This document shows, one piece after another, positions 1,412 through 51,536 of a stretch of 64,000 nt of DNA; the first letter of the stretch is position 1, and the number at the start of each line of letters is the position of its first letter. Location: the NCBI GenBank assembly GCA_022530585.1, contig CP092821.1:905128-969127 (forward strand), written 5' to 3'. The translations under genes were made by a program, and so were the position numbers. Under the pieces are notes generated by a model. It was not told where the DNA came from. It made no database searches and worked only from the letters and a program-made list of their open reading frames with translations. Source of the stretch: Candidatus Nealsonbacteria bacterium DGGOD1a. GTDB lineage: Bacteria > Patescibacteriota > Minisyncoccia > Minisyncoccales > UBA5738.

Positions 1412-4400
1412 TTATTTATAGAAACTTTCCAAGTTTTGCGGCCAAAAACTCAACGGCCAAGCGGAATTGTAAAATCTTTGATTGCCGATTTTTTTCATCG
1501 GCAATTTTTGCCTGCCGGCCAAGTCGGCGATCCTTGCCGGCAGGACAATCTCAATTTCCATCTCGCCGGTTTTATCAATTTCCAAGCCGAGATTTTCCAG
1601 CTCGCCTTGCAGATAGAACCAATTTTTGTTTTTGAGCGCGGCGGCGCAAATTTTGCTGTTGCCGCAGAACTTTTTCTCCGGCGACCAATAGACAATCGCG
1701 CGGCTGATTTTCAGATTTTGCGCGGCGGCCAATTTTTCATATTTCCAAAAGATATTGTTTTCTTTGAAACTTAAACTGGCAACGGCAGTTTTACCGCCGG
1801 AAAAAATCAATTTTAACTCTATGTTTTTCGCCAAATTGTCTTTTGAAAAATCTCGCGGCAATTCAAATTGCCCGGCAATGGCAAATTCTTGATTTTTATT
1901 TTTCGCTTTTTGCCATTTGATGAAAGCGGTTTTGACGGCAAGCGACCGCAAGGATTGGCGCGGCTTTTCAACTTCGGCGCTTGTTTGCAAAACTTCTCCC
2001 GTGGTTTGATTTTTTGCCATTGCTTGAAACAGCTCTTGGCCTTCAAAGACCGGCAATTCCACGAAGACCCCGCCGTCTTCGTCGGAAGTCAAATTGCCAA
2101 AATTCGCGCCGCCGTAGATAATGTTAATTTTTTCTCCTTCATCAATAGCGATATTGTCAAAATAAACGCCATAACTCTCTCCCGCGCGCGGCAATCCCGG
2201 ATAATTCACTCGAAATTGCTTGGCGATGCCCACCCCCGCGTCATTCTGGCTTTCCAAAATAATCGTGTGCACGCCGGGGTTCATTTCGGGTAAAAGAATT
2301 TCCGTATCAATAATTCCGTTTTCATCGACAATCGCTTCCCCGATTTTTTTCGGCTCGGAAAGAATCATTATCGGAACGATTGCGCCCGGAGCAAAACCGC
2401 CCAAGTAGAGACTTATCGTTTGCCCGGGCAAAATACCAATCGGGATATTGTTGATCAAAACTCCATTAACCGCGTCCATTACCGCTTGCCCCGCGGACGG
2501 CAAACAATCTTCCGCACCGGTTTTGTTGTGCGCGGCCAGAATATTGCAAGCGATAACATCATAACCTTTGGCATTGGGATGGAATAATCCTTTTGAGCGA
2601 TCATAGCGTATATTCAAATTTCCATTTGAATAATCAACCAAGTTGGCTAAAATTATTCTCATCTGATCCGTGTTGCTTAAGTAATTTAACAATGAGGTTG
2701 ATAAATTTTTTACTTGATTAAACGCTGTATTAACATCGCAATCCGCGCCACCGTCAAATACATTCAAGTGAACACCCAAGCATTGCTTCCAAGAATTATA
2801 CGCCGCCAACAAGTTATCAATCAGCGCGCGGGACTGCGCGTCGCCGTTGCCGTCAAGATTGAGCAGTCGCCTGATTTCGGCGTTAAGGTTGGCTTCTTTG
2901 ACGCCATTTGCCAACGCGGTTGCGGCATTGGCCGGACAAAGAGCGTTGCCGCCCAAAGAACTTTGCAAACTTGCCAGCTCCAGCCGCGGATTGCTTTGCG
3001 CAACCGCAAGCTTTGCTTGATTGATTTTTTCATTGATGGCATTCACTTTCCCGCGGGCATAGCCGATGTCTTCTTTGCGCAAACCCCCGCAATAGGAAAG
3101 CGATTTGGTGTTTCGGGGAAGAATGTCGGGATAATCCGCTTGAATCACGCGGGCCTTGGCAAAAGTTTGCAAAATTTTATTTTGCGCCCAAACTTCTTTG
3201 GCATAAAGCGCGTTGATCGCGGCATTGCTGTCAAATAAATTATCGTCAATATTCTTGCACGAAGCAAACATATCCACCAAAGTTTTGATCTCCGCCGGAG
3301 GATTGGGATATTCCTGTAACGCTTTGCGCAAGATATTGGGCAAAAGACAAGCTTGGATAATTTCTACGAATCCGGCACCGTTACCGCCCATGCCAACGGT
3401 AACCAAGTCCACATCAGCAGGAGTTAACCCGGCGTCATTCAGTTTGTTCAATGCTTGTTGAAGCTGTGAATCGGGCGCAATTTGATCGGCGGCCATATCG
3501 CCGATCACCGGCGGCTGGCTTCCATTTTCAATCTTTGCGCCGCTGCAGGTTAAATCGATCAAAACAATATCTTCGTCGTTCAATTCGGGATGGAATTTGT
3601 TTTTGTTGATTTTGGCATAGTTTTGCAGAGCGCGATGGCAAGAATTGTCGCCGGCAATCAATGTGTCGGTATAGGTGCCTTGCTCGTACCCGCGGGCAAG
3701 ATATTCTTCGGCGCCCTCAATGGAATTCCCCGCGCCTTCGCCGGATTGGTAGGAATCGCCCAAAGCGACATAGACGAATTTGTCTTTGCCGCCGGCAATC
3801 TCGTAATTTTCAAACGGTTGGACCAGCGGGAAACTGTCGGTGTAGCCGCCGATCGGGCAAGCGGCATTGCCAATGCCGTCGCCGTCCGGATCTTCCGTTT
3901 GGCATTGGGGCTGGTAATTGCCCGGTTTGCCGCGATAAATTTTGTTTTGATATTTATAGCCAAGCTCTTCTTGCGAATTCCAGTAATTGACATAGTCTTG
4001 GTAGGGATACAGCGTGCCGTAGAAATCATTCAGATAGATAATGTTGCCGGCGCTTTGAGTACTCACTCCAGCCGACGAGTTATATTCCGCCGGCAGATTG
4101 ATGTCATATCCGGTATTGTCGCGGAAGATATTGCGGGTGATTTCGGAATTGCCGGAACCATAGTTCACGATATATATTCCATCCAGATTGGATTCGATGA
4201 TGTTGTTGCTAATCTTGGCTTCCCAAGCGCCGTAATTCAAGCGGATGCCGGCGCTGTTGGTTGCGCCGCGGATGGTAAAGCCGTTGATTTCAGCCGGACC
4301 CGCCGCCGTGATCGCCGACACGGCGGGATCAACGGCTTCGATAACCGTGGCGCCCGGCGCGGCATTTTCAGCTTTTAAAATAATCCTGCCCCCGAAAGCC

Positions 4401-4594
4401 ACATTCTCGCGGTAAACTCCGGGCGCAACCAAAATCGTATCGCCATTACTCGCCGCGATGATCGCGGATTGGATGGTTTGGTATTCGCTATCCGGCGCAA
4501 CGGTGAATGTTGCGGCAAAAACCGAATCCGAAAACGAAAGAGACAAAACGCTAACTATAAAAACCAATACACGCTTTTTTAAATTAAGCATCAT
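1412..4594 (-). CDS. Large secreted protein: right-handed beta-helix (NosD/pectate-lyase-like) plus SGNH/GDSL hydrolase domain
   Basis: 1060 aa, ATG confirmed, signal/anchor VLVFIVSVLSLSF. Beta-helix-type repeats (IRGATNSAGIRLNY, NNIIESNLDGIYIVN, ITRNIFRDN). SGNH block I motif FVYVALGDSYQSGEGAG. Confidence 0.75.
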   Translation of the reverse strand: MMLNLKKRVLVFIVSVLSLSFSDSVFAATFTVAPDSEYQTIQSAIIAASNGDTILVAPGVYRENVAFGGRIILKAENAAPGATVIEAVDPAVSAITAAGPAEINGFTIRGATNSAGIRLNYGAWEAKISNNIIESNLDGIYIVNYGSGNSEITRNIFRDNTGYDINLPAEYNSSAGVSTQSAGNIIYLNDFYGTLYPYQDYVNYWNSQEELGYKYQNKIYRGKPGNYQPQCQTEDPDGDGIGNAACPIGGYTDSFPLVQPFENYEIAGGKDKFVYVALGDSYQSGEGAGNSIEGAEEYLARGYEQGTYTDTLIAGDNSCHRALQNYAKINKNKFHPELNDEDIVLIDLTCSGAKIENGSQPPVIGDMAADQIAPDSQLQQALNKLNDAGLTPADVDLVTVGMGGNGAGFVEIIQACLLPNILRKALQEYPNPPAEIKTLVDMFASCKNIDDNLFDSNAAINALYAKEVWAQNKILQTFAKARVIQADYPDILPRNTKSLSYCGGLRKEDIGYARGKVNAINEKINQAKLAVAQSNPRLELASLQSSLGGNALCPANAATALANGVKEANLNAEIRRLLNLDGNGDAQSRALIDNLLAAYNSWKQCLGVHLNVFDGGADCDVNTAFNQVKNLSTSLLNYLSNTDQMRIILANLVDYSNGNLNIRYDRSKGLFHPNAKGYDVIACNILAAHNKTGAEDCLPSAGQAVMDAVNGVLINNIPIGILPGQTISLYLGGFAPGAIVPIMILSEPKKIGEAIVDENGIIDTEILLPEMNPGVHTIILESQNDAGVGIAKQFRVNYPGLPRAGESYGVYFDNIAIDEGEKINIIYGGANFGNLTSDEDGGVFVELPVFEGQELFQAMAKNQTTGEVLQTSAEVEKPRQSLRSLAVKTAFIKWQKAKNKNQEFAIAGQFELPRDFSKDNLAKNIELKLIFSGGKTAVASLSFKENNIFWKYEKLAAAQNLKISRAIVYWSPEKKFCGNSKICAAALKNKNWFYLQGELENLGLEIDKTGEMEIEIVLPARIADLAGRQKLPMKKIGNQRFYNSAWPLSFWPQNLESFYK

Positions 4595-4694: not shown

Positions 4695-4742
4695 TTGCGC
4701 AAGGTCGCACCTTGCAAGCTTGCAAGGTGCGACCTTGCGCAA
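4695..4742. repeat. REPIN-like perfect palindrome (family 1, core CAAGGTCGCACCTTGCA), 48 bp
   Basis: TTGCGCAAGGTCGCACCTTGCAAG followed by its exact reverse complement. Lies 15 nt beyond the stop of the Y1 transposase gene. Confidence 0.9.
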
Positions 4743-4756
4743 CTATTCCCTTGGGA

Positions 4757-5494
4757 TTACCGCGGTAATGACCCCTTGTTCTTGATCCAGCTCTCGGTAA
4801 ATTCCTTAACCGTTCTCATTCCTTTTCCAATATCATCGGATTTGGCAAAAACTTTCAATAGAAAATCTCTTGCCGTAACCGATGGAAAATTTTTAATTCC
4901 GATACTGTCCAAATAACTCGACCATTTGTAATTATTTAAAAATTCAATCGCGGCCTTCAAGTCCTTAACTCCCTCCGTCTTCCAATCCGCGTCGACAAGT
5001 TCAACCGGATTTGAAAATACATATTCCGCCAAATGAATGAATTGATTGTTGTCGCCGGCATGGACCGCTTTGAACCTGCCTTGGAACAACGCACCCATCC
5101 CTTTTCTTTCGTATCTGTCATTAAAATAACCCGTATAACTGTTGCTTAACTTTTTCATAAAAAGAGACACTCCATCGTTGACAAGCGGCCGTAAAATCAA
5201 ATGATAATGATTCGGCATCAAAACAAACGCAATAATGTCAACCAGCAGTTCCCTTTTATGGTTTGACAAGGTCGCACCTTGCAAGCTTGCAAGGTGCGAC
5301 CTTGTCAAACTTTTTTTCCGGCGATCTTGAATCCTTTGGGCCATTCTCACAAAATTGCGGTCATTGCATTCATAAAGAGAAAAAATAAAACGGTAATAAT
5401 CGGAGTCATCCATAAAAACAATTCTTTTCTCTACGCCGCGGTTAAAGGTATGGTAAACTTCGCCGACAATAAATTCCCGTTTTGAATTTGGCAT
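4757..5494 (-). CDS. REP-associated tyrosine transposase (RAYT) / IS200-like Y1 HUH transposase
   Basis: 245 aa, ATG confirmed. N-terminal GEVYHTFNRGVEKRIVF, HUH motif MPNHYHLILRP, Tyr motif AEYVFSNPVE. No tnpB partner. Bracketed by family-1 palindromes. Confidence 0.8.
   Translation of the reverse strand: MPNSKREFIVGEVYHTFNRGVEKRIVFMDDSDYYRFIFSLYECNDRNFVRMAQRIQDRRKKSLTRSHLASLQGATLSNHKRELLVDIIAFVLMPNHYHLILRPLVNDGVSLFMKKLSNSYTGYFNDRYERKGMGALFQGRFKAVHAGDNNQFIHLAEYVFSNPVELVDADWKTEGVKDLKAAIEFLNNYKWSSYLDSIGIKNFPSVTARDFLLKVFAKSDDIGKGMRTVKEFTESWIKNKGSLPR
5261..5310. repeat. Family-1 perfect palindrome (50 bp) located inside the RAYT coding sequence, in frame
   Basis: GTTTGACAAGGTCGCACCTTGCAAG plus its exact reverse complement. 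It encodes ...SLTRSHLASLQGATLSNHK... just upstream of the HUH motif. Confidence 0.9.
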
Positions 5495-5528
5495 AAATTT
5501 ATAATAACTAAATTATATCTAAGCCGAA

Positions 5529-5584
5529 AAAGTTGCGCAAGGTCGCACCTTGCAAGCTTGCAAGGTGCGACCTTGCGCAACTTT
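5529..5584. repeat. Family-1 perfect palindrome, 56 bp
   Basis: AAAGTTGCGCAAGGTCGCACCTTGCAAG plus its exact reverse complement, 35 nt upstream of the RAYT start codon. Confidence 0.9.
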
Positions 5585-5725
5585 GTTTTGCTGGACGGCG
5601 TTGACAATATGGATTAGGGAAAACAAAAAGCCTCTTCGATTAGGAAGAGGCTTTTTGCTACGCCCGCCGCCGCGCAAGGCTTTGGCAAGGCACGCCCGTC
5701 CACAAGAAAGGCGATTTGGAAACTG

Positions 5726-7909: not shown

Positions 7910-8050
7910 TGTTTATTTATTGTTTTTTACTAAGGTTTTTTAAACCTTTTTTAACTTCGGTCGCGTCAACCTTTGAATCCTCCCAGCCAAAGCTTTAAAG
8001 CTGTGAGCATCGCGACTGCTTAATCCTTTGTCCCTCCTTTCGTCGGGACG

Positions 8051-8096
8051 CGGGAGGGGTTTGAAAATCTTGATCAAGATTTTCAAACCCCTCCCG
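8051..8096. terminator. 46-bp perfect palindrome, possible non-canonical terminator
   Basis: CGGGAGGGGTTTGAAAATCTTGA|TCAAGATTTTCAAACCCCTCCCG, 15 nt after the stop at 8111. The T-run (GAAGCTTTTTTG) is on the plus-strand side only, so it is not a classical terminator for the minus-strand gene. Confidence 0.4.
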
Positions 8097-8110
8097 AAGC
8101 TTTTTTGTTA

Positions 8111-8931: not shown

Positions 8932-8993
8932 AAGTTTTACAAGGTCGCACCTTGCACGATTGCAATCGTGCAAGGTGCGACCTTGTAAAACTT
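8932..8993. repeat. Family-1 palindrome variant, 62 bp perfect
   Basis: AAGTTTTACAAGGTCGCACCTTGCACGATTG plus its exact reverse complement. Same AAGGTCGCACCTTGCA core, different centre. Lies between the sigma and anti-sigma genes. Confidence 0.9.
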
Positions 8994-8994
8994 C

Positions 8995-9498
8995 TTAAGA
9001 CAATTTAGTTCGCAGTTCTTTCATTGCCCGATGGAGCAAAACCCGGGTGGCTTCTTCAGAGCGATCCAGAAGGTGGGACACCTCCTTGATCGGCATATCT
9101 TCAAGGTAACGCCAGATGATGGCGTTTTGGTAATCTTCGTTCAAATCCACCATGGCTTTGCGCACGGTTTCCATATCCGAAGCCAGAACCGCTCGCTGTT
9201 CCAGATCAACCTTGGTATCAGCCAGCTGGCTCTCGACCAGCTCCGGCGAAACCGTTTGAATCTTGGCTTTGGCGCGGTAATGGTCGATCACCAAATTTTT
9301 GGCGATTTTGTACAGAAAAGCCCGCGGGTTTTTAATTTCATTCGGATTTGTTTTATAACTCTCCCATCCTTTGGCGAAAGTTTCCGAAGTCAAATCCTGC
9401 GCGATTTCCTTTGAATTCACGCGCAAAAAGACAAACCGGTAGATTTTTTCCACATGGTCGTCATATATCCGGCTGAATTTTCCCTGAATTTTATCCAT
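8995..9498 (-). CDS. RNA polymerase ECF-type sigma-70 factor
   Basis: Region 2 (IYRFVFLRV..AQDLTSETFAKGW) and region 4 (IIWRYLEDMPIKEVSHLLDRSEEATRVLLHRAMKEL) signatures. Track start 9507 is TTG; first ATG is 9498. Confidence 0.85.
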   Translation of the reverse strand: MDKIQGKFSRIYDDHVEKIYRFVFLRVNSKEIAQDLTSETFAKGWESYKTNPNEIKNPRAFLYKIAKNLVIDHYRAKAKIQTVSPELVESQLADTKVDLEQRAVLASDMETVRKAMVDLNEDYQNAIIWRYLEDMPIKEVSHLLDRSEEATRVLLHRAMKELRTKLS

Positions 9499-9631
9499 AA
9501 TTATCAAACAGCATAATTACCGCTTGTTTTATAAAGCGGCTTAATCAATCGTGTCCTATCAAATATATCACAATTCCCGACAAAAAACAAGCTAAAAGCT
9601 ATTGACAAATCGGCGACACACTGATCTAATT

Positions 9632-10514: not shown

Positions 10515-10641
10515 ATTGCGAAACCATTAAATTCAAATACCGTTGAAGGTCTAACCCTTGCGATTACGCAAGGGACAGACCCCAAAAGCCAAGCGCGACG
10601 CAATGCTCAAAGCATTGCAGTAGCAATGCTTTGAGCATTGC
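10515..10641 (+). repeat. Family-2 nested-stem element (copy A), followed by a 42-bp palindrome
   Basis: ATTGCGAAACCATTAAATTCAAATAC..GGTCTAACCCTTGCG-ATTA-CGCAAGGGACAGACC (core 10548-10581)..CCCAAAAGCCAAGCG. Then GCAATGCTCAAAGCATTGC-AGTA-GCAATGCTTTGAGCATTGC (10600-10641). Confidence 0.85.
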
Positions 10642-34256: not shown

Positions 34257-34269
34257 ACCCTGCAGAAAT

Positions 34270-34386
34270 TTAAAGTTAAAAAATCAAAATAAAAAATGAC
34301 AATTTAAAATTAAAAGTTCAAAATGCGCGGACATTTTACATTTTGCATTGTCATTTTGATTTTTGATTTTTACATTTTAAATTTTC
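34270..34386. repeat. Family-5 AT-rich inverted-repeat cassette, copy 1
   Basis: AAAAATCAAAATAAAAAATGACAATTTAAAATT ... ATTTTACATTTTGCATTGTCATTTTGATTTTTGATTTTTACATTTTAAATTTT, between the ftsZ start and the ftsA stop. Confidence 0.85.
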
Positions 34387-42127: not shown

Positions 42128-42139
42128 CGAACAAAGTTA

Positions 42140-42258
42140 AAAGATAAAAATCAAAATGAAAAATGACAATGTAAAATTAAAAATTATCAAATTTTAAAAT
42201 TGTTTCATTTTAAATTTTGAACTGTCATTTTTCATTTTGATTTTTACATTTTTAATTT
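42140..42258. repeat. Family-5 cassette, copy 3
   Basis: AAAAATCAAAATGAAAAATGACAATGTAAAATT ... ACTGTCATTTTTCATTTTGATTTTTACATTTTTAATTTT, between the hisS start and the lepB stop. Confidence 0.85.
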
Positions 42259-43511: not shown

Positions 43512-43551
43512 CAAGGTCGCACCTTGCCATAATCGGCAAGGTGCGACCTTG
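43512..43551. repeat. Family-1 hairpin variant (17-bp perfect stem)
   Basis: CAAGGTCGCACCTTGCC-ATAATC-GGCAAGGTGCGACCTTG, 12 nt after the pth stop. Confidence 0.9.
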
Positions 43552-43707: not shown

Positions 43708-44595
43708 ATGGTGTATAGTAAAAAAGTGATGGATTACAACATCAAACATATCACTGAAGCCGATATTGAATTCCCCAATTGCTTGCGCACCATCCCCTCA
43801 CGGCCCAAAGAATTATATTTGCGCGGTATTTTGGATCCGGTTAAACCGTGCGTGGCCGTGGTTGGTTCGCGTATCCCGTCCACCTATGGCAAGCAAGCCG
43901 TCCACGATATTGTGAGCGGATTGTCCCGCGCCGGCGTTTGCGTTATCTCCGGTATGGCGCCGGGTATTGATACCTTGGCTCATCAAACCGCCTTGGAATG
44001 CAACGGCTTGACCGTTGGCGTAATCGGCACCGGATTGGACGAAAAATCGTTTTTCCCCAAACAAAACCTTGACTTGGCGACAAAAGTGGTTAATACTGGC
44101 GGTTGTTTGGTCAGCGAATACCCGGCAAGCTTTAAAGCCACCAACTACTCTTTCCCCCAGCGCAACCGCATCATCGCCGGCCTGTCGCTGGCAGTTCTGG
44201 TCATCGAAGCCAAGGAAAAATCCGGTTCGCTCATCACCGCCGAATGGGGTCGCAAACAGCACAAACCGGTGTTCGCGGTTCCCGGATCGATCTACTCGAC
44301 AAACTCCAAGGGCTGTAATTGGCTGTTAAAGAAAGGCGGGCTGGCCTGCGACTCCGCCTTGGATATTCTAAACGCCTTGGGTATCGCGCCAATATCGCCG
44401 AAAATCGCGGCAACGGCGGGTACCCCCGAAGAGCAAAAAATTCTCGACGCGTTAAAAAACGGAGCGTTGGATATCAATCAAATAATTCTGGCCGCCAAAC
44501 TCCCCGCCCCAACCGTGATCGGCCTGATCCCGGTTATGGAAATCAACAATATCATCCGCGATTTGGGCAACGGGGAATACTGCCTGAACAATTAA
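43708..44595 (+). CDS. dprA: DNA-processing protein DprA (Smf)
   Basis: ATG confirmed. VAVVGSRIPSTYG..., ISGMAPGIDTLAHQ, ...FPQRNRIIAGLS..., C-terminal wHTH-like tail. Confidence 0.85.
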   Translation: MVYSKKVMDYNIKHITEADIEFPNCLRTIPSRPKELYLRGILDPVKPCVAVVGSRIPSTYGKQAVHDIVSGLSRAGVCVISGMAPGIDTLAHQTALECNGLTVGVIGTGLDEKSFFPKQNLDLATKVVNTGGCLVSEYPASFKATNYSFPQRNRIIAGLSLAVLVIEAKEKSGSLITAEWGRKQHKPVFAVPGSIYSTNSKGCNWLLKKGGLACDSALDILNALGIAPISPKIAATAGTPEEQKILDALKNGALDINQIILAAKLPAPTVIGLIPVMEINNIIRDLGNGEYCLNN

Positions 44596-44596
44596 T

Positions 44597-44710
44597 TTAA
44601 AATCGAAAAATCAAAATGGAAAATGACAGTGTAAAATTTAAAATTATTGGATTCAAATTTTTTACATTTTAAATTGTCATTTTGATTTTTGATATTTACA
44701 TTTTTAATTT
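44597..44710. repeat. Family-5 cassette, copy 4
   Basis: AAAATCGAAAAATCAAAATGGAAAATGACAGTGTAAAATTT ... AAATTGTCATTTTGATTTTTGATATTTACATTTTTAATTTTT. Ends 2 nt before the topA ATG. Confidence 0.85.
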
Positions 44711-44712
44711 TT

Positions 44713-46833
44713 ATGGATCTCATCATTGTCGAATCGCCCACAAAAGCCCGGACTTTGCAAAAATTTTTAGGTTCGAACTATAAAATTCTGTCATCGTACG
44801 GCCATGTGCGCGATCTGCCCAAGGGCTCTTTTGGCGTTGATCTTGAAAATAATTTCACGCCGAAATACACCCTCACCGCCAAAGGCAAAACCACGATTAA
44901 AGAACTCAAAGCCGAAGTTAAAAAAGCCGACAAGATATTTTTAAGCACTGATCCGGACCGCGAAGGCGAAGCCATCGCGTGGCATTTGATCGAAGCCCTG
45001 AAACTGGACAAACCGGCCACCAAAAAAATTGAAGGCCCGGCTTATCGGCGCATTGAATTCCACGAAATCACCAAACGCGCCATTGATGAAGCCCTGCGAA
45101 ACCCCCGGGAACTTGATTTTAACTTGGTCAACGCCCAGCAAGCGCGCCGCGTTTTGGATCGCATCGTCGGCTATCAACTTTCCCCTTTCCTTTGGAAAAA
45201 AATCGCCAAAGGCCTGTCGGCCGGCCGCGTCCAGTCCGTGGCCGTACGGCTCATTGCCGAGCGCGAACGCGAAATTGAAGCCTTCAAGCCCGAAGAATAC
45301 TGGGAAGTTTTAGCGACCCTCAAAAACACCAAAAAACAACCGCTCAAAGAATTTGCCGCCAAGCTGGTGAAAATCAACGAAAAAGTTTTGGACAAGCTGG
45401 AAATCACCGATGAAGCCAAAGCGATTGATATTCAAAATGGCCTTGAAAACGCGCGCTATTCCATCGTCGCGATTGATAAAAAAGAAACCCGCAAGAATCC
45501 AAACCCGCCGTTCACCACTTCCACTCTCCAGCAAGCCGCGTGGCAAAAATTCCACCTCACGGCCAAAGCCGCAATGATGACCGCCCAACAATTGTACGAA
45601 ATGGGATTGATCACCTACCACCGCACCGACTCGCTCAATTTGTCGGAGCAGTCGCTGGCGGCGGCAAAACAATTCATCATTCAAACTTACGGAGAACAAT
45701 ACCATCCCGGCGGGTACAACACCTACAAAACCAAAGCCAAGGGCGCCCAAGAAGCCCACGAAGCCATCCGGCCGGCCTACCCGGAGCAAACCCCGGAAAT
45801 GGCTCAAACCGACAAAAATCTCACCCGGCCGCAATATAAATTATACGAGCTGATCTGGCAAAGATTTATCGCCTGCCAAATGACACCCGCGATTTTTGAC
45901 GGCATGAGCGTTGATATTGACGCGATTGGAGTTTCAAACACGAATTATGGCTTCAAGGCCAACGGCCAAACCTTGAAATTCGACGGTTATTTGAAAGTCT
46001 ATCCCTCAAAATTCGAACCGGTTGACTTGCCGGCGATGGAAACCGCCGAAGATTTGGAATTTATCAAACTTGATCCGACCCAGCATTTCACCAAGCCGCC
46101 GGCGCGCTTCAATGAAGCCAGCCTGATCAAAGCTCTGGAAGAATTCGGCATCGGGCGGCCGTCAACCTACGCGCCGATCATCACTACGATTCAAACCCGC
46201 AACTATATTGAAAAAGACGATAAAAAATCTTTCAAACCCACGGAAATGGGTCTGATGGTCAATGACATTCTGGTGGCGCACTTTCCGCGGATCGTGGATA
46301 TCGGTTTTACCGCCAAAATGGAAGAAGAATTCGATGAAATCGCCCAAGGGTCGATGGATTGGGTAAAGATGATGCGCGATTTCTACGCGCCGTTCAAGGA
46401 AAACTTGGATGCCAAATATAAAGAAGTGGAAAGCAAAAAAACCCAAGTGGTCGCCACCGATAAAATTTGCCCCAAGTGCGGCGCGAATCTGGTGATTAAA
46501 ATGGGACGCTTCGGAAAATTCTACGCCTGCCCCAAATTTCCGGAATGCAAGCACACCGAAAATATGGAACCGGCCAAGCCCGCGTTTGATGTGGAAATCC
46601 CCTGCCCCAAATGCGGGACCGGCCACATCGTGGAAAAGAAAACGAAAAAACGAAAAATTTTCTACGGCTGTTCGGCCTACCCCGATTGCGACTTCGCCCT
46701 CTGGGACAAACCCACCGGCGCCAAGTGCGAAAAATGCGGCAGCATAATGATCGAAACCAAACGCAAGCAAGTGAAATGCTCCAACAAAGAATGTTCAGCA
46801 AATGCAAAATTGAAAAATCAAAATGAAAAATGA
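44713..46833 (+). CDS. topA: DNA topoisomerase I
   Basis: Toprim LIIVESPTKA, DPDREGEAIAWH, active-site region GLITYHRTDS, four C-terminal CxxC...CxxC zinc ribbons. Start moved to ATG 44713. Confidence 0.95.
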   Translation: MDLIIVESPTKARTLQKFLGSNYKILSSYGHVRDLPKGSFGVDLENNFTPKYTLTAKGKTTIKELKAEVKKADKIFLSTDPDREGEAIAWHLIEALKLDKPATKKIEGPAYRRIEFHEITKRAIDEALRNPRELDFNLVNAQQARRVLDRIVGYQLSPFLWKKIAKGLSAGRVQSVAVRLIAEREREIEAFKPEEYWEVLATLKNTKKQPLKEFAAKLVKINEKVLDKLEITDEAKAIDIQNGLENARYSIVAIDKKETRKNPNPPFTTSTLQQAAWQKFHLTAKAAMMTAQQLYEMGLITYHRTDSLNLSEQSLAAAKQFIIQTYGEQYHPGGYNTYKTKAKGAQEAHEAIRPAYPEQTPEMAQTDKNLTRPQYKLYELIWQRFIACQMTPAIFDGMSVDIDAIGVSNTNYGFKANGQTLKFDGYLKVYPSKFEPVDLPAMETAEDLEFIKLDPTQHFTKPPARFNEASLIKALEEFGIGRPSTYAPIITTIQTRNYIEKDDKKSFKPTEMGLMVNDILVAHFPRIVDIGFTAKMEEEFDEIAQGSMDWVKMMRDFYAPFKENLDAKYKEVESKKTQVVATDKICPKCGANLVIKMGRFGKFYACPKFPECKHTENMEPAKPAFDVEIPCPKCGTGHIVEKKTKKRKIFYGCSAYPDCDFALWDKPTGAKCEKCGSIMIETKRKQVKCSNKECSANAKLKNQNEK

Positions 46834-46920
46834 CAATTAAAAATGTAAAATTTATAATTCAATAATTTTAAATTTTACATTGTCATTTTGATTTTTGATT
46901 TTTACATTTTAAATTTTTAT
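46808..46920. repeat. Family-5 cassette, copy 5; overlaps the topA 3' end
   Basis: AAATTGAAAAATCAAAATGAAAAATGACAATTAAAAATGTAAAATTT ... ATTTTACATTGTCATTTTGATTTTTGATTTTTACATTTTAAATTTTT. The left arm encodes topA ...KLKNQNEK and its stop codon. Confidence 0.85.
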
Positions 46921-47020
46921 TTTTCTCTTGATTTTTCCCCAATTTCGCGCTACCCTACAATCATCAATTTGAAGATTGGCGGTGCATTATGTCATTGTTA
47001 TCTTTAGTTCCTAACTTTTT

Positions 47021-47443: not shown

Positions 47444-47487
47444 TCAAAAGGGTCCGACCCTTTTTAAAAAGGGTCGGACCCTTTTGA
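47444..47487. repeat. Family-3 perfect palindrome (44 bp), core AAAAGGGTC(C/G)GACCCTTTT
   Basis: TCAAAAGGGTCCGACCCTTTTT plus its exact reverse complement, 17 nt upstream of the DUF134 start. Confidence 0.9.
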
Positions 47488-50399: not shown

Positions 50400-51536
50400 T
50401 CATATTCCCAAATTCGGTTCGGATGTCAAATCATCAGGGCTGGCAACCGCCTCCCCCCTTTTAAAAGCAAAGTAGCCCGCGACTCCGGCCATGGCCGCGT
50501 TATCCATTGATAAATCCGCGCCGGGCGCGAGAAATTTCATATTCAGTTCATCAGCCGCTTTTTGCATTGCCTCGCGCAAAGCCGCATTGGCGCTCACGCC
50601 GCCGCCGATAATGATTGATTTGGCGGCAAATTCTTTGGCCGCCCGCGCCGTTTTTGAAACCAGCACATCAACGATCGCCTGTTGAATCTCAAAACTCATC
50701 ATTCGCGGATATTCCGGCGATTTTCGCGTTTCTTCGTTCTGCTTTTGATGCGCGTACAGCACCGCGGTTTTCAATCCCGAAAAACTGAAATTGTAATTTT
50801 TTTGGGCAATCATCGGCCGCGGCAATTTGACTTTGGTTTCCGAAGGAGCATCTAAAAGGGTCGGACCCTTTTTATTCAAAAAGGGTCCGACCCTTTTAGA
50901 ATATTTTTGGGCATATTTTGCAATCTCCGGGCCGCCGGGATAGCCCAAGCCCAAAATGCGCGCGGCTTTGTCAAAACACTCGCCCGCCGCGTCATCTTGG
51001 GTTTGTCCCAGCAATTTGTAATCGCCGATGCCGCTAGCCAAGAACAACAGCGTGTGTCCGCCCGAAACCACCAAACAAACCGCCGGCAAATAGTTTTTGG
51101 CAAATTTTTCTTCGCCGATTTTCAAAGTTATCAAATTCGCCAAAAAATGCGCCTCCAAATGATTGGCTCCCGCCAACGGCAAGTTGTATTTCTTCGCCAA
51201 ATCTTGCGCGAAATTTATTCCCGTCCATAGGCACGGATCCAAGCCCGGCCCTTGCGTTACGACGATAAATTTTAATTTTGATAAATCAAATTTTTTTGTC
51301 GCGTCTTCAAAAACGAAAGGCAGATTTTTCTGATGCTCGCGTTTTGCCAAAAACGGATACACTCCGCCGTATCCGGCGTGCAATTCGGTTTGCGAAGAAA
51401 CAACATTGGACAGCGCCTCAATCTTCTCCAATTTCCCCTTATCCTCCTTTGCCCGCAAAACGCTGATTGAAGTGTCGTCGCAAGAAGTCTCAATCGCCAA
51501 AAAATACAGTTCTCCGCCTTTTTTTGCAAATTGCAT
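50400..51536 (-). CDS. tsaD: tRNA N6-adenosine threonylcarbamoyltransferase TsaD, carrying a ~17-aa palindrome-encoded insertion
   Basis: ATG confirmed. IETSCDDTSISV, ANHLEAH, GLGYPGGPEI, NFSFSGLKT, IIGGGVSAN. See repeat 50851-50900. Confidence 0.9.
   Translation of the reverse strand: MQFAKKGGELYFLAIETSCDDTSISVLRAKEDKGKLEKIEALSNVVSSQTELHAGYGGVYPFLAKREHQKNLPFVFEDATKKFDLSKLKFIVVTQGPGLDPCLWTGINFAQDLAKKYNLPLAGANHLEAHFLANLITLKIGEEKFAKNYLPAVCLVVSGGHTLLFLASGIGDYKLLGQTQDDAAGECFDKAARILGLGYPGGPEIAKYAQKYSKRVGPFLNKKGPTLLDAPSETKVKLPRPMIAQKNYNFSFSGLKTAVLYAHQKQNEETRKSPEYPRMMSFEIQQAIVDVLVSKTARAAKEFAAKSIIIGGGVSANAALREAMQKAADELNMKFLAPGADLSMDNAAMAGVAGYFAFKRGEAVASPDDLTSEPNLGI
50851..50900. repeat. Family-3 palindrome (23-bp perfect arms, 4-nt centre) inside tsaD, in frame
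   Basis: TCTAAAAGGGTCGGACCCTTTTT-ATTC-AAAAAGGGTCCGACCCTTTTAGA. It encodes SKRVGPFLNKKGPTLL. Confidence 0.9.

Follow-up and report, generated by a model that had tools for sequence, protein, structure and literature searches.

A RAYT-like Y1 transposase gene of a Candidate Phyla Radiation genome with matching flanking and in-frame hairpins

We analyzed a stretch of 64,000 nucleotides (the window) from the genome of Candidatus Nealsonbacteria bacterium DGGOD1a, a member of the Candidate Phyla Radiation (CPR, or Patescibacteria; contig CP092821.1, positions 905,128 to 969,127). A gene in this window encodes a Y1/HUH tyrosine transposase-like protein; one palindrome lies upstream of it, a second lies downstream, and a third copy of the same sequence is found in frame inside the coding region. 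According to our analysis, this locus is likely to be a vertically inherited Y1 endonuclease-transposase acting on single-stranded DNA (ssDNA), of the type of the RAYT (tyrosine transposase associated with repetitive extragenic palindromes [REPs]) and TIRYT proteins, together with its cognate hairpin module. The three-site layout was found in about 85% of 71 homologues, with hairpin sequences that are specific to each lineage. The internal in-frame copy is the most informative feature of the locus, and it holds across the family.

The Y1 enzyme and its palindromes

Reading of the DNA letters alone (the sequence-only reading) had proposed a 245-amino-acid (aa) open reading frame (ORF) with IS200-like Y1 motifs (NHYHLIL and EYVFSNPVE). 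The ORF and both motifs were found in their place, and the protein scored 36.4 bits against Pfam Y1_Tnp (PF01797), above the cutoff of 23. The HUH columns are invariant in our alignment of homologues (A1), and Y158, N162 and P163 are invariant in both A1 and a further alignment (A4). The signature of class-2 (RAYT-like) TnpA-Y1 proteins is Y---NP, while that of class 1 (IS200) is Y---Q (PMC6006769); the window protein carries the class-2 form (E-Y-V-F-S-N-P). Its sole NCBIfam match was the RAYT equivalog NF047646 (REP_Tyr_transpos), with 45.6 bits, under the cutoff of 80. The same model gave 36 bits for CPR relatives and 75–77 bits for proteobacterial relatives resembling subclass 2.1. The NCBIfam IS200 model did not match the protein at E<=0.1. 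We then compared an AlphaFold2 model (26 homologues; predicted local distance difference test [pLDDT] 80, predicted template modelling score [pTM] 0.79) with known structures using Foldseek. The top match in the PDB was E. coli TnpAREP with its bound REP hairpin (4er8_A, E=7.7e-6), and the ISDra2, IS608 and IS200 transposases followed as weaker matches. The window gene thus encodes a Y1/HUH enzyme of the RAYT-like class 2, and not an IS200 TnpA. It is the one Y1 gene of the 64 kb and, as had been supposed, the flanking genes examined include no tnpB-like partner. The 245-aa protein is identical on 10 public contigs from several samples.

Palindromes of 48 and 56 bp had been reported to bracket the gene. 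Both are there and both are perfect; the distances given for them, 15 and 35 nt, were essentially right (14 nt from the stop codon and 34 nt from the ATG). Three further copies of the core had been listed. Two of them are dispersed (8932–8993 and 43512–43551), but the third, at 5261–5310, lies in frame inside the Y1 ORF. The core shared by the palindromes is CAAGGTCGCACCTTG. The core AAGGTCGCACCTTGC occurs 10 times in the window, as 5 inverted doublets, while dinucleotide-preserving shuffles contained 0.08 matches on average and none of 100 reached 10. Each unit is an inverted doublet of the mini-hairpin CAAGGT-CGC-ACCTTG, and all five fold as ssDNA into one long hairpin (−24 to −36 kcal/mol, z = −10 to −12), in agreement with the earlier description of REPIN-like doublets. 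REPINs are said to have been described by Bertels and Rainey in 2011 as two inverted REP hairpins able to fold into one long hairpin. The hairpin feet read GTTGCG/GTTTGA/GTTTTA-CAAGGT..., and a GTAG or GTGG foot (GT[AG]G) is absent from all five window units. Rfam scans, in gathering and E-value modes, returned no family that fits the palindromes, the matches being generic hairpins far under threshold.

On the gene strand, no sigma-70-type promoter passed our scan of the region 5' of the Y1 ATG. A TATAAT at 5517–5512, with the TTGCGC of the palindrome 17 nt upstream, allows a weak promoter reading only.

The three-copy layout in the CPR family

Relatives of the Y1 protein were found at 499 places among 185,579 species-representative genomes of GTDB, and 2026 protein clusters match it at E<=1e-5. 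All close homologues come from metagenome-assembled genomes of Patescibacteria/CPR. We retained 71 non-redundant homologous genes from the GTDB species representatives. In each of them the loop DNA, i.e. the stretch of ~150 nt between the NRG motif and LMPNHYH, was compared with the gene's own 150-nt flanks, and an exact match of at least 12 nt was counted. Our results showed that the loop DNA matches its own 5' flank in 57 of 69 genes (median 21 nt) and its own 3' flank in 51 of 69. The rest of the same gene, which is about 3 times longer, matched the 5' flank in 1 of 69 genes and the 3' flank in none of the 69. When the loops of other genes were used as a non-cognate control, 3% of the 5' and 2% of the 3' comparisons gave a match. 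The two flanks also match each other (at least 12 nt) in 55 of 67 genes.

The loop region is palindromic as well as repeated. The median length of its best perfect stem is 10 bp, and this stem is at least 10 bp long in 39 of 71 genes, compared to 1 of 181 control windows taken from these genes. Most relatives have a single hairpin as their unit, and not a doublet. Across the family, the internal copy starts at codon 50–73. The median distance is 20 nt between the end of the 5' copy and the ATG, and 3.5 nt between the stop codon and the start of the 3' copy. The hairpin is centred on either of two codon phases, with 17 genes in each, and these phases track the type of hairpin and peptide in our listing. 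The hairpin sequences vary by genome (e.g. ATACACAGGTGACACCTGTGTAT, AATGAGAGACGTCGGACGTCTCTCATT and TTTAGCGAAGTCCGACTTCGCTAAA). An apex of the form GTNNNAC is present in 31 of 44 CPR hairpins, and GGTNNNACC in 24 of 44; because this apex is kept, Gly73 is invariant and Thr75 near-invariant in the protein alignment. We also looked for a fixed rule of orientation among the three copies and rejected it, since layouts with all copies in the same sense and layouts with inverted flanks both occur.

The internal copy is present at the same place in 60 of the 71 homologues, down to 41% protein identity. It is part of an insertion that is specific to CPR and separates helix A from the HUH strand. In the AlphaFold2 model, residues 64–77 have a pLDDT below 50 and connect the helix 51–63 to the strand that leads into the HUH motif, so that the palindrome is predicted to encode a disordered loop. 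We then compared the gene of locus L001 with those of L007 and L008, where nucleotide identity is 68–72% and third-position identity 46–55%. The internal palindrome is the longest identical run (38–39 nt), and the next longest runs are 17 and 14 nt. It is thus more than twice as long as any other run in the gene, and exceeds even the HUH-coding DNA. The internal copy is conserved at the DNA level beyond coding needs. Because the peptide is predicted to be disordered, this points to a constraint on the DNA (or RNA), or to renewal from a conserved repeat family.

These observations bear on an alternative in which the internal palindrome is a selected cis site, where the enzyme would bind or nick its own gene and the hairpin of the promoter region, limiting its expression or being held in cis. 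In that case the three-site unit would be what functions and co-evolves as a whole; only the role given to the internal copy, otherwise a tolerated passenger, separates this alternative from the main explanation. The constant position of the copy, the perfect 38–39-nt run in genes whose synonymous sites are near saturation elsewhere, and the predicted disorder of the peptide, which makes selection on the protein an unlikely cause, all agree with such a role. Moreover, L001, L007 and L008 have identical internal doublets, but their flank copies take different forms (doublet, singlet, decayed). On the other hand, 11 of the 71 genes are intact and have lost the internal copy while keeping their flank hairpins, and the copy is therefore dispensable in at least some lineages. 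Another doublet lies in frame in tsaD and cannot conceivably have such a role there, so that insertions of this kind are tolerated in the genome. Internal stems are also not systematically longer than those of the flanks: the idea of a best-preserved internal "master" was rejected because the internal stem exceeds both flank stems in 7 of 48 genes and is shorter than both in 18 of 48. We consider a selected cis site a serious possibility, while leaning somewhat against it. A stronger version would make the in-frame hairpin an obligatory cis element. The gene with its promoter- and terminator-proximal copies would then form a self-referential unit that sets the specificity of the hairpin population, templates the renewal of the copies and feeds back on expression. 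We put this version forward tentatively and find it rather improbable.

Table 1. Features of the Y1 locus and related hairpin units in the window.
Feature	Position	Strand	Remarks
3'-flanking perfect palindrome, 48 nt	4695–4742		14 nt after the Y1 stop codon; −31.1 kcal/mol, z = −10.6
Y1/HUH tyrosine transposase-like gene, 245 aa	4757–5494	−	ORF, Pfam, NCBIfam, AlphaFold2
Putative catalytic Tyr158 codon, EYVFSNP	5021–5023	−	Read from the sequence
HUH codons, H96-Y97-H98 of LMPNHYHLIL (motif N95-H96-Y97-H98)	5201–5209	−	Read from the sequence
Internal in-frame perfect palindrome, 50 nt	5261–5310		Residues ~62–78 (SLTRSHLASLQGATLSN); −29.9 kcal/mol, z = −10.9
5'-flanking perfect palindrome, 56 nt	5529–5584		Ends 34 nt before the ATG; −36.5 kcal/mol, z = −10.8
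Dispersed perfect palindrome, 62 nt	8932–8993		1 nt after the stop codon of the sigma-70 gene (8995–9507, −), upstream of the DUF5667 gene
Dispersed palindrome, 40 nt	43512–43551		11 nt after the stop codon of the peptidyl-tRNA hydrolase gene, upstream of dprA
Second doublet family, AAAAGGGTCSGACCCTTTT, GGTNNNACC apex type	47444–47487		Intergenic
Second doublet family, AAAAGGGTCSGACCCTTTT	50851–50900		In frame inside tsaD (50400–51536, −)

Inheritance, concerted change and dispersed copies

In the window, the Y1 gene lies between the genes for a 727-aa protein and a 1060-aa beta-helix/GDSL protein. Five orthologues (L007, L008, L009, L011 and L012), with 61–71% identity to the Y1 protein, share parts of the context sigma-70 / DUF5667 / 727-aa / Y1 / 1060-aa, and no locus shows all five genes. 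The neighbouring proteins are only 37–78% identical at these orthologous loci. Paralogues in one genome are 39–76% identical, each with a different hairpin. No near-identical Y1 copies were found in the loci examined, no relative was found in the phage collection searched, and relatives on plasmids are only distant (at most 33% identity). As synteny is kept and paralogues do not exceed 76% identity, these data argue for vertical inheritance and not for a spread of insertion-sequence type. The Y1 gene behaves as a domesticated, vertically inherited gene and not as an insertion sequence.

The orthologue of L011 (5001–5663) appears frameshifted or truncated, and its C-terminal coding continues in another frame. 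At this locus a 3' hairpin copy remains, 115 nt after the premature stop.

The hairpin changes from genome to genome at the syntenic locus. L001, L007 and L008 carry the CAAGGTCGCACCTTG doublet, L009 a TCGAGGTTTCACCTAGA doublet, L011 GCAAGGTTTCACCTTGC and L012 CATAGGTGCGACCTATG. In each of these genomes, the internal copy agrees with at least one flank copy. Since independent mutation cannot plausibly yield matching copies, the sequence must be copied among the sites.

These results also allow us to weigh the reading of the gene and its flanking hairpins as an autonomous IS200-like element, with the palindromes as its left and right ends (LE/RE) and the solitary ones as remnants or derivatives akin to miniature inverted-repeat transposable elements (MITEs). 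The Y1_Tnp domain, the matching hairpins just outside the gene ends at IS200-like distances, and the two flank copies on the same strand in one clade (L037, L042) would fit with this. The protein also shares with the IS200/IS605 TnpA proteins (IS608, ISDra2) the HUH/Y1 fold and subterminal hairpins at both gene ends. It differs from them by its Y...NP instead of Y...Q motif, its ~100 additional aa, the lack of tnpB, the absence of identical copies and its syntenic locus. The IS200 model does not match it, and its top structural match is TnpAREP. Likewise, the gene neighbourhood is constant even though the neighbouring proteins have diverged, the diverged paralogues have their own hairpins, a single copy is present in 64 kb and none was found in phages. 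We therefore regard this reading as very unlikely. The suspicion that the gene might prove to be an ordinary IS200/IS605 member, raised with the first description of the locus, was not borne out, as no IS200 match and no near-identical copies appeared in the loci examined and synteny is kept.

Beyond the Y1 locus, extra copies of the hairpin are gained and lost at orthologous intergenic sites. The site of the 8932–8993 unit is empty in L011 (...CTTAAG|AGGGGTGTAACATTTTT), and L012 holds there a different, decayed doublet. Conversely, doublets follow the DUF5667 gene in L007 and L012, and none is found there in the window or in L011. Among the matches listed, a few related contigs (77–82% DNA identity) have the core at positions where the window has none, and one unit identical to 5529–5584 stands in a different context on a related contig. 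The core is thus found at other loci in related metagenome contigs, and is not confined to the window. A metagenome scan for the 15-mer core gave mostly single chance matches among the matches listed.

The 3' palindrome (4695–4742) is kept in all the strain contigs examined. Strains L002 (~2347–2442) and L004, whose Y1 protein is identical, lack 137 nt upstream of the gene (window 5538–5674), and with them most of the 5' palindrome and the unrelated terminator of the 727-aa gene. The deletion junction is at CCTTG|CGC, at the hairpin foot and within an 8-nt direct repeat CCTTGCGC. We rejected a clean REPIN excision, because the deletion also takes the unrelated terminator and is bounded by this direct repeat; it could result from slippage or from enzyme-mediated excision.

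The least probable explanation, which we consider exceedingly improbable, is that the host uses the palindromes as ordinary hairpins, to terminate transcription in both directions or to stabilise mRNAs, and that the enzyme has no part in them: the 5' palindrome does look like a terminator because T-runs follow it on both strands, with a terminator score on both, the dispersed copies lie 1–11 nt after stop codons and REPs elsewhere act as terminators and stabilisers (PMC3733652), but each Y1 gene has a hairpin of its own, and the two change together in ~60 genomes (non-cognate matches, 2–3%), the in-frame copy lies in a coding sequence and has no T-run on its sense strand, and ordinary terminators of the window, such as 5624–5657, are unrelated in sequence to the Y1 palindromes.

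The window contains other repeats. A second doublet family, AAAAGGGTCSGACCCTTTT, has one intergenic member and one in frame in tsaD (Table 1), where it adds ~19 residues (...SKRVGPFLNKKGPTLL...) that are absent from T. maritima TsaD. We looked in the window for a second Y1 gene that could serve this family and found none; the neighbouring ORF encodes a ZIP transporter. A third nested-hairpin doublet, GCAATGCTCAAAGCATTGC-AGTA-GCAATGCTTTGAGCATTGC, occurs once in the window, in an intergenic position (10600–10641). AT-rich imperfect inverted repeats of ~110–140 nt (AAATTTAAAATCGAAAAATCAAAATGAAAAATGACA...) are found at 34266–34384, 44594–44709, 46800–46936 and perhaps 42133–42258; this family is intergenic and unrelated to the Y1 hairpins. 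Between the genes for DUF5667 and the 727-aa surface protein, an element of ~190 nt (~7910–8100) includes a perfect 46-nt palindrome (8051–8096). It is conserved in L007, L011 and L012 (...GTCGCG..CACAGCTTTAAAGCTTTGGCTGGGAG..GGTCGGCGCGAC...) and has no Rfam match; it may be a leader or regulatory RNA. Finally, strains differ downstream of Y1: the window encodes the 1060-aa beta-helix/GDSL protein at 1412–4594, versus proteins of 115 and 866 aa in L002 (3351–6323). The divergence begins ~170 nt past the Y1 stop codon, and looks like a variable surface-protein region next to the locus.

Relation to known systems and significance

Quentin et al. (2018) described 12 subclasses of TnpA-Y1 (PMC6006769), and TIRYT genes, or TIRtrons, are flanked by inverted repeats, many of which contain GGGGWSAS (Di Nocera et al., 2013; PMC3733652). 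The TIRYT proteins, which correspond to subclass 2.1 and to Bertels group 1, are the closest to the CPR family by motifs and flank geometry. Both have ~230–245 aa, the motifs NH[YF]H, (F/W)Q and Y[IV]xxNP and a C-terminal extension with Y-WSSY. Subclass 2.1 itself is characterised by NH[YF]H, FQ/W[EQ] and Y[IV]xLNP in about 238 aa. In both, matching inverted repeats from families of low copy number flank the gene, ~20–40 nt upstream of the ATG and a few nt downstream of the stop codon. However, the CPR proteins are only about 25% identical to their subclass-2.1 relatives and have two extra insertions, of ~38 aa before the HUH strand and of ~14 aa after NPV. Unlike those of TIRYT, their repeats are fully self-complementary hairpins or doublets and include a third, in-frame copy; subclass 2.1 has been reported without REP-like structures (PMC6006769). 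The window hairpin has no GGGG, and the probable link to subclass 2.1 is based on motifs and flank geometry.

This link is supported by two proteobacterial plasmid relatives, L206 (P. aeruginosa) and L207 (R. rubrum), which have neither the ~38-aa insertion nor an internal copy. Their terminal inverted repeats (TIRs) carry GGGGWSAS at distances as in the CPR family (L206, 38 nt, GGGGACAG, at 439–552 / 1284–1321; L207, 19 nt, at 546–564 / 1312–1330). The R. rubrum TIR AAAAGGGGTCAGACCCC is self-complementary, and its GGGGTCAGACCCC is itself a GGTNNNACC hairpin like the CPR ones.

In subclass 2.4 (Bertels group 4; Cyanobacteria and Bacteroidetes), REPs are also found in frame inside tnpAREP (PMC6006769). 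As in the CPR family, the cognate REP flanks the transposase gene and lies inside it, in a peripheral variable region and with the frame intact. The position differs, since the CPR copy precedes the HUH motif (residues 62–78 versus 96–98). The proteins differ too, with NH[IFV]H, WQ and YIxNNP in ~194 aa for subclass 2.4 versus NHYH, FQ and YVFSNP in 245 aa for the window protein. Subclass-2.4 REPs have a GT[AG]G foot or a "double foot", whereas the window hairpins are without GTAG. The conserved site and register and the co-variation across the family are quantified here for CPR, and are not reported for subclass 2.4 in the parts of PMC6006769 that we consulted.

Like E. coli TnpAREP (RAYT, subclass 2.2, with REPs and bacterial interspersed mosaic elements [BIMEs]) and the Pseudomonas RAYT-REPIN systems, each CPR paralogue has its own hairpin family. 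As in canonical REPtrons, the genes are low-copy and vertically inherited, the doublets correspond to REPINs and the copies lie mostly just downstream of genes. The very short spacers of the doublets (2–14 nt) and the in-frame internal copy set the CPR systems apart, and dispersed copies number a few per 60 kb versus hundreds per genome in canonical REPtrons. The palindromic elements of Rickettsia (RPEs) and intragenic REPs lie in frame in genes, where they add 16–30 residues in surface loops (PMC3733652), and in this they resemble the insertions in the Y1 gene and, for the second family, in tsaD. RPEs have no known dedicated transposase, whereas in CPR one of the insertions lies in the very gene that presumably encodes the transposase, and is conserved across a phylum-level family.

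Taken together, the locus fits best with a RAYT/TIRYT-type enzyme and its hairpins. The hairpin module, which in ssDNA extrudes as a single long hairpin, occupies three fixed places: ~20–35 nt before the ATG, just after the stop codon and in frame before the HUH motif. By analogy with TnpAREP and IS608 TnpA, the enzyme would bind the apex (GTNNNAC) and the foot of the hairpin on ssDNA, and cleave and rejoin the strand there. Occasionally, it may place copies of the module elsewhere, in most cases right behind a stop codon and in some cases in frame within a gene. In the ancestor of the family, one such in-frame insertion may have entered a surface loop and become the internal copy; copying among the three sites and a DNA-level constraint would since have kept it in step with the flanks. 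What we infer from the better-studied systems is thus the binding and cleavage of hairpins, copying driven by the enzyme, and any part that the internal and promoter-proximal copies play in regulation.

Several observations weigh against this explanation. The earlier proposal of a REP/RAYT system stands as far as the class-2 enzyme and the cognate doublets, flanking and elsewhere, are concerned, but the score against the canonical RAYT hidden Markov model (HMM) is under its cutoff and the GTAG foot is missing. In the 11 homologues that have lost the internal copy, the flank hairpins still match. Where the loops are asymmetric, no fixed rule governs how the three copies are oriented to one another, and their homogenisation could be ordinary gene conversion without the enzyme. 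Dispersed copies are scarce (2 in the 64 kb, and 7 in 409 kb of far flanks, at 5 of 66 related loci), and active mobilisation may therefore be rare or past. Finally, all related loci are metagenome-assembled, and assemblies can go wrong at palindromes; however, the layout is identical on 10 independent contigs, which argues against an artefact.

The standard example of a transposase that has been domesticated and lives together with its repeats is given by the RAYT/REP systems, which have been described mainly in Proteobacteria, Cyanobacteria and Bacteroidetes. Our literature searches found no description of REP/RAYT/TIRYT systems in CPR/Patescibacteria. Parts of the locus have precedents, in the flanks of TIRYT genes and in the in-frame REPs of subclass 2.4. 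This CPR-specific branch of the class-2 Y1 enzymes, whose TIRs are hairpins and whose in-frame copy before the HUH motif is conserved, is apparently undescribed in CPR.

With dozens of lineage-specific hairpins, three fixed copies of each beside and within the gene whose product presumably reads them, and often several orthogonal pairs in one genome, the family is a natural experiment on the co-evolution of an enzyme with its substrate. The determinants of specificity can be mined directly from it, and the role of a substrate site inside the gene is open to testing. The family is also a possible source of orthogonal, sequence-specific enzymes for nicking and joining ssDNA. Streamlined genomes of ~1 Mb tolerate palindromic modules even in essential genes such as tsaD. 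If the gene and its three hairpins do form a self-referential cis unit, this would provide a concrete mechanism for the co-diversification of RAYT-like enzymes and their repeats.

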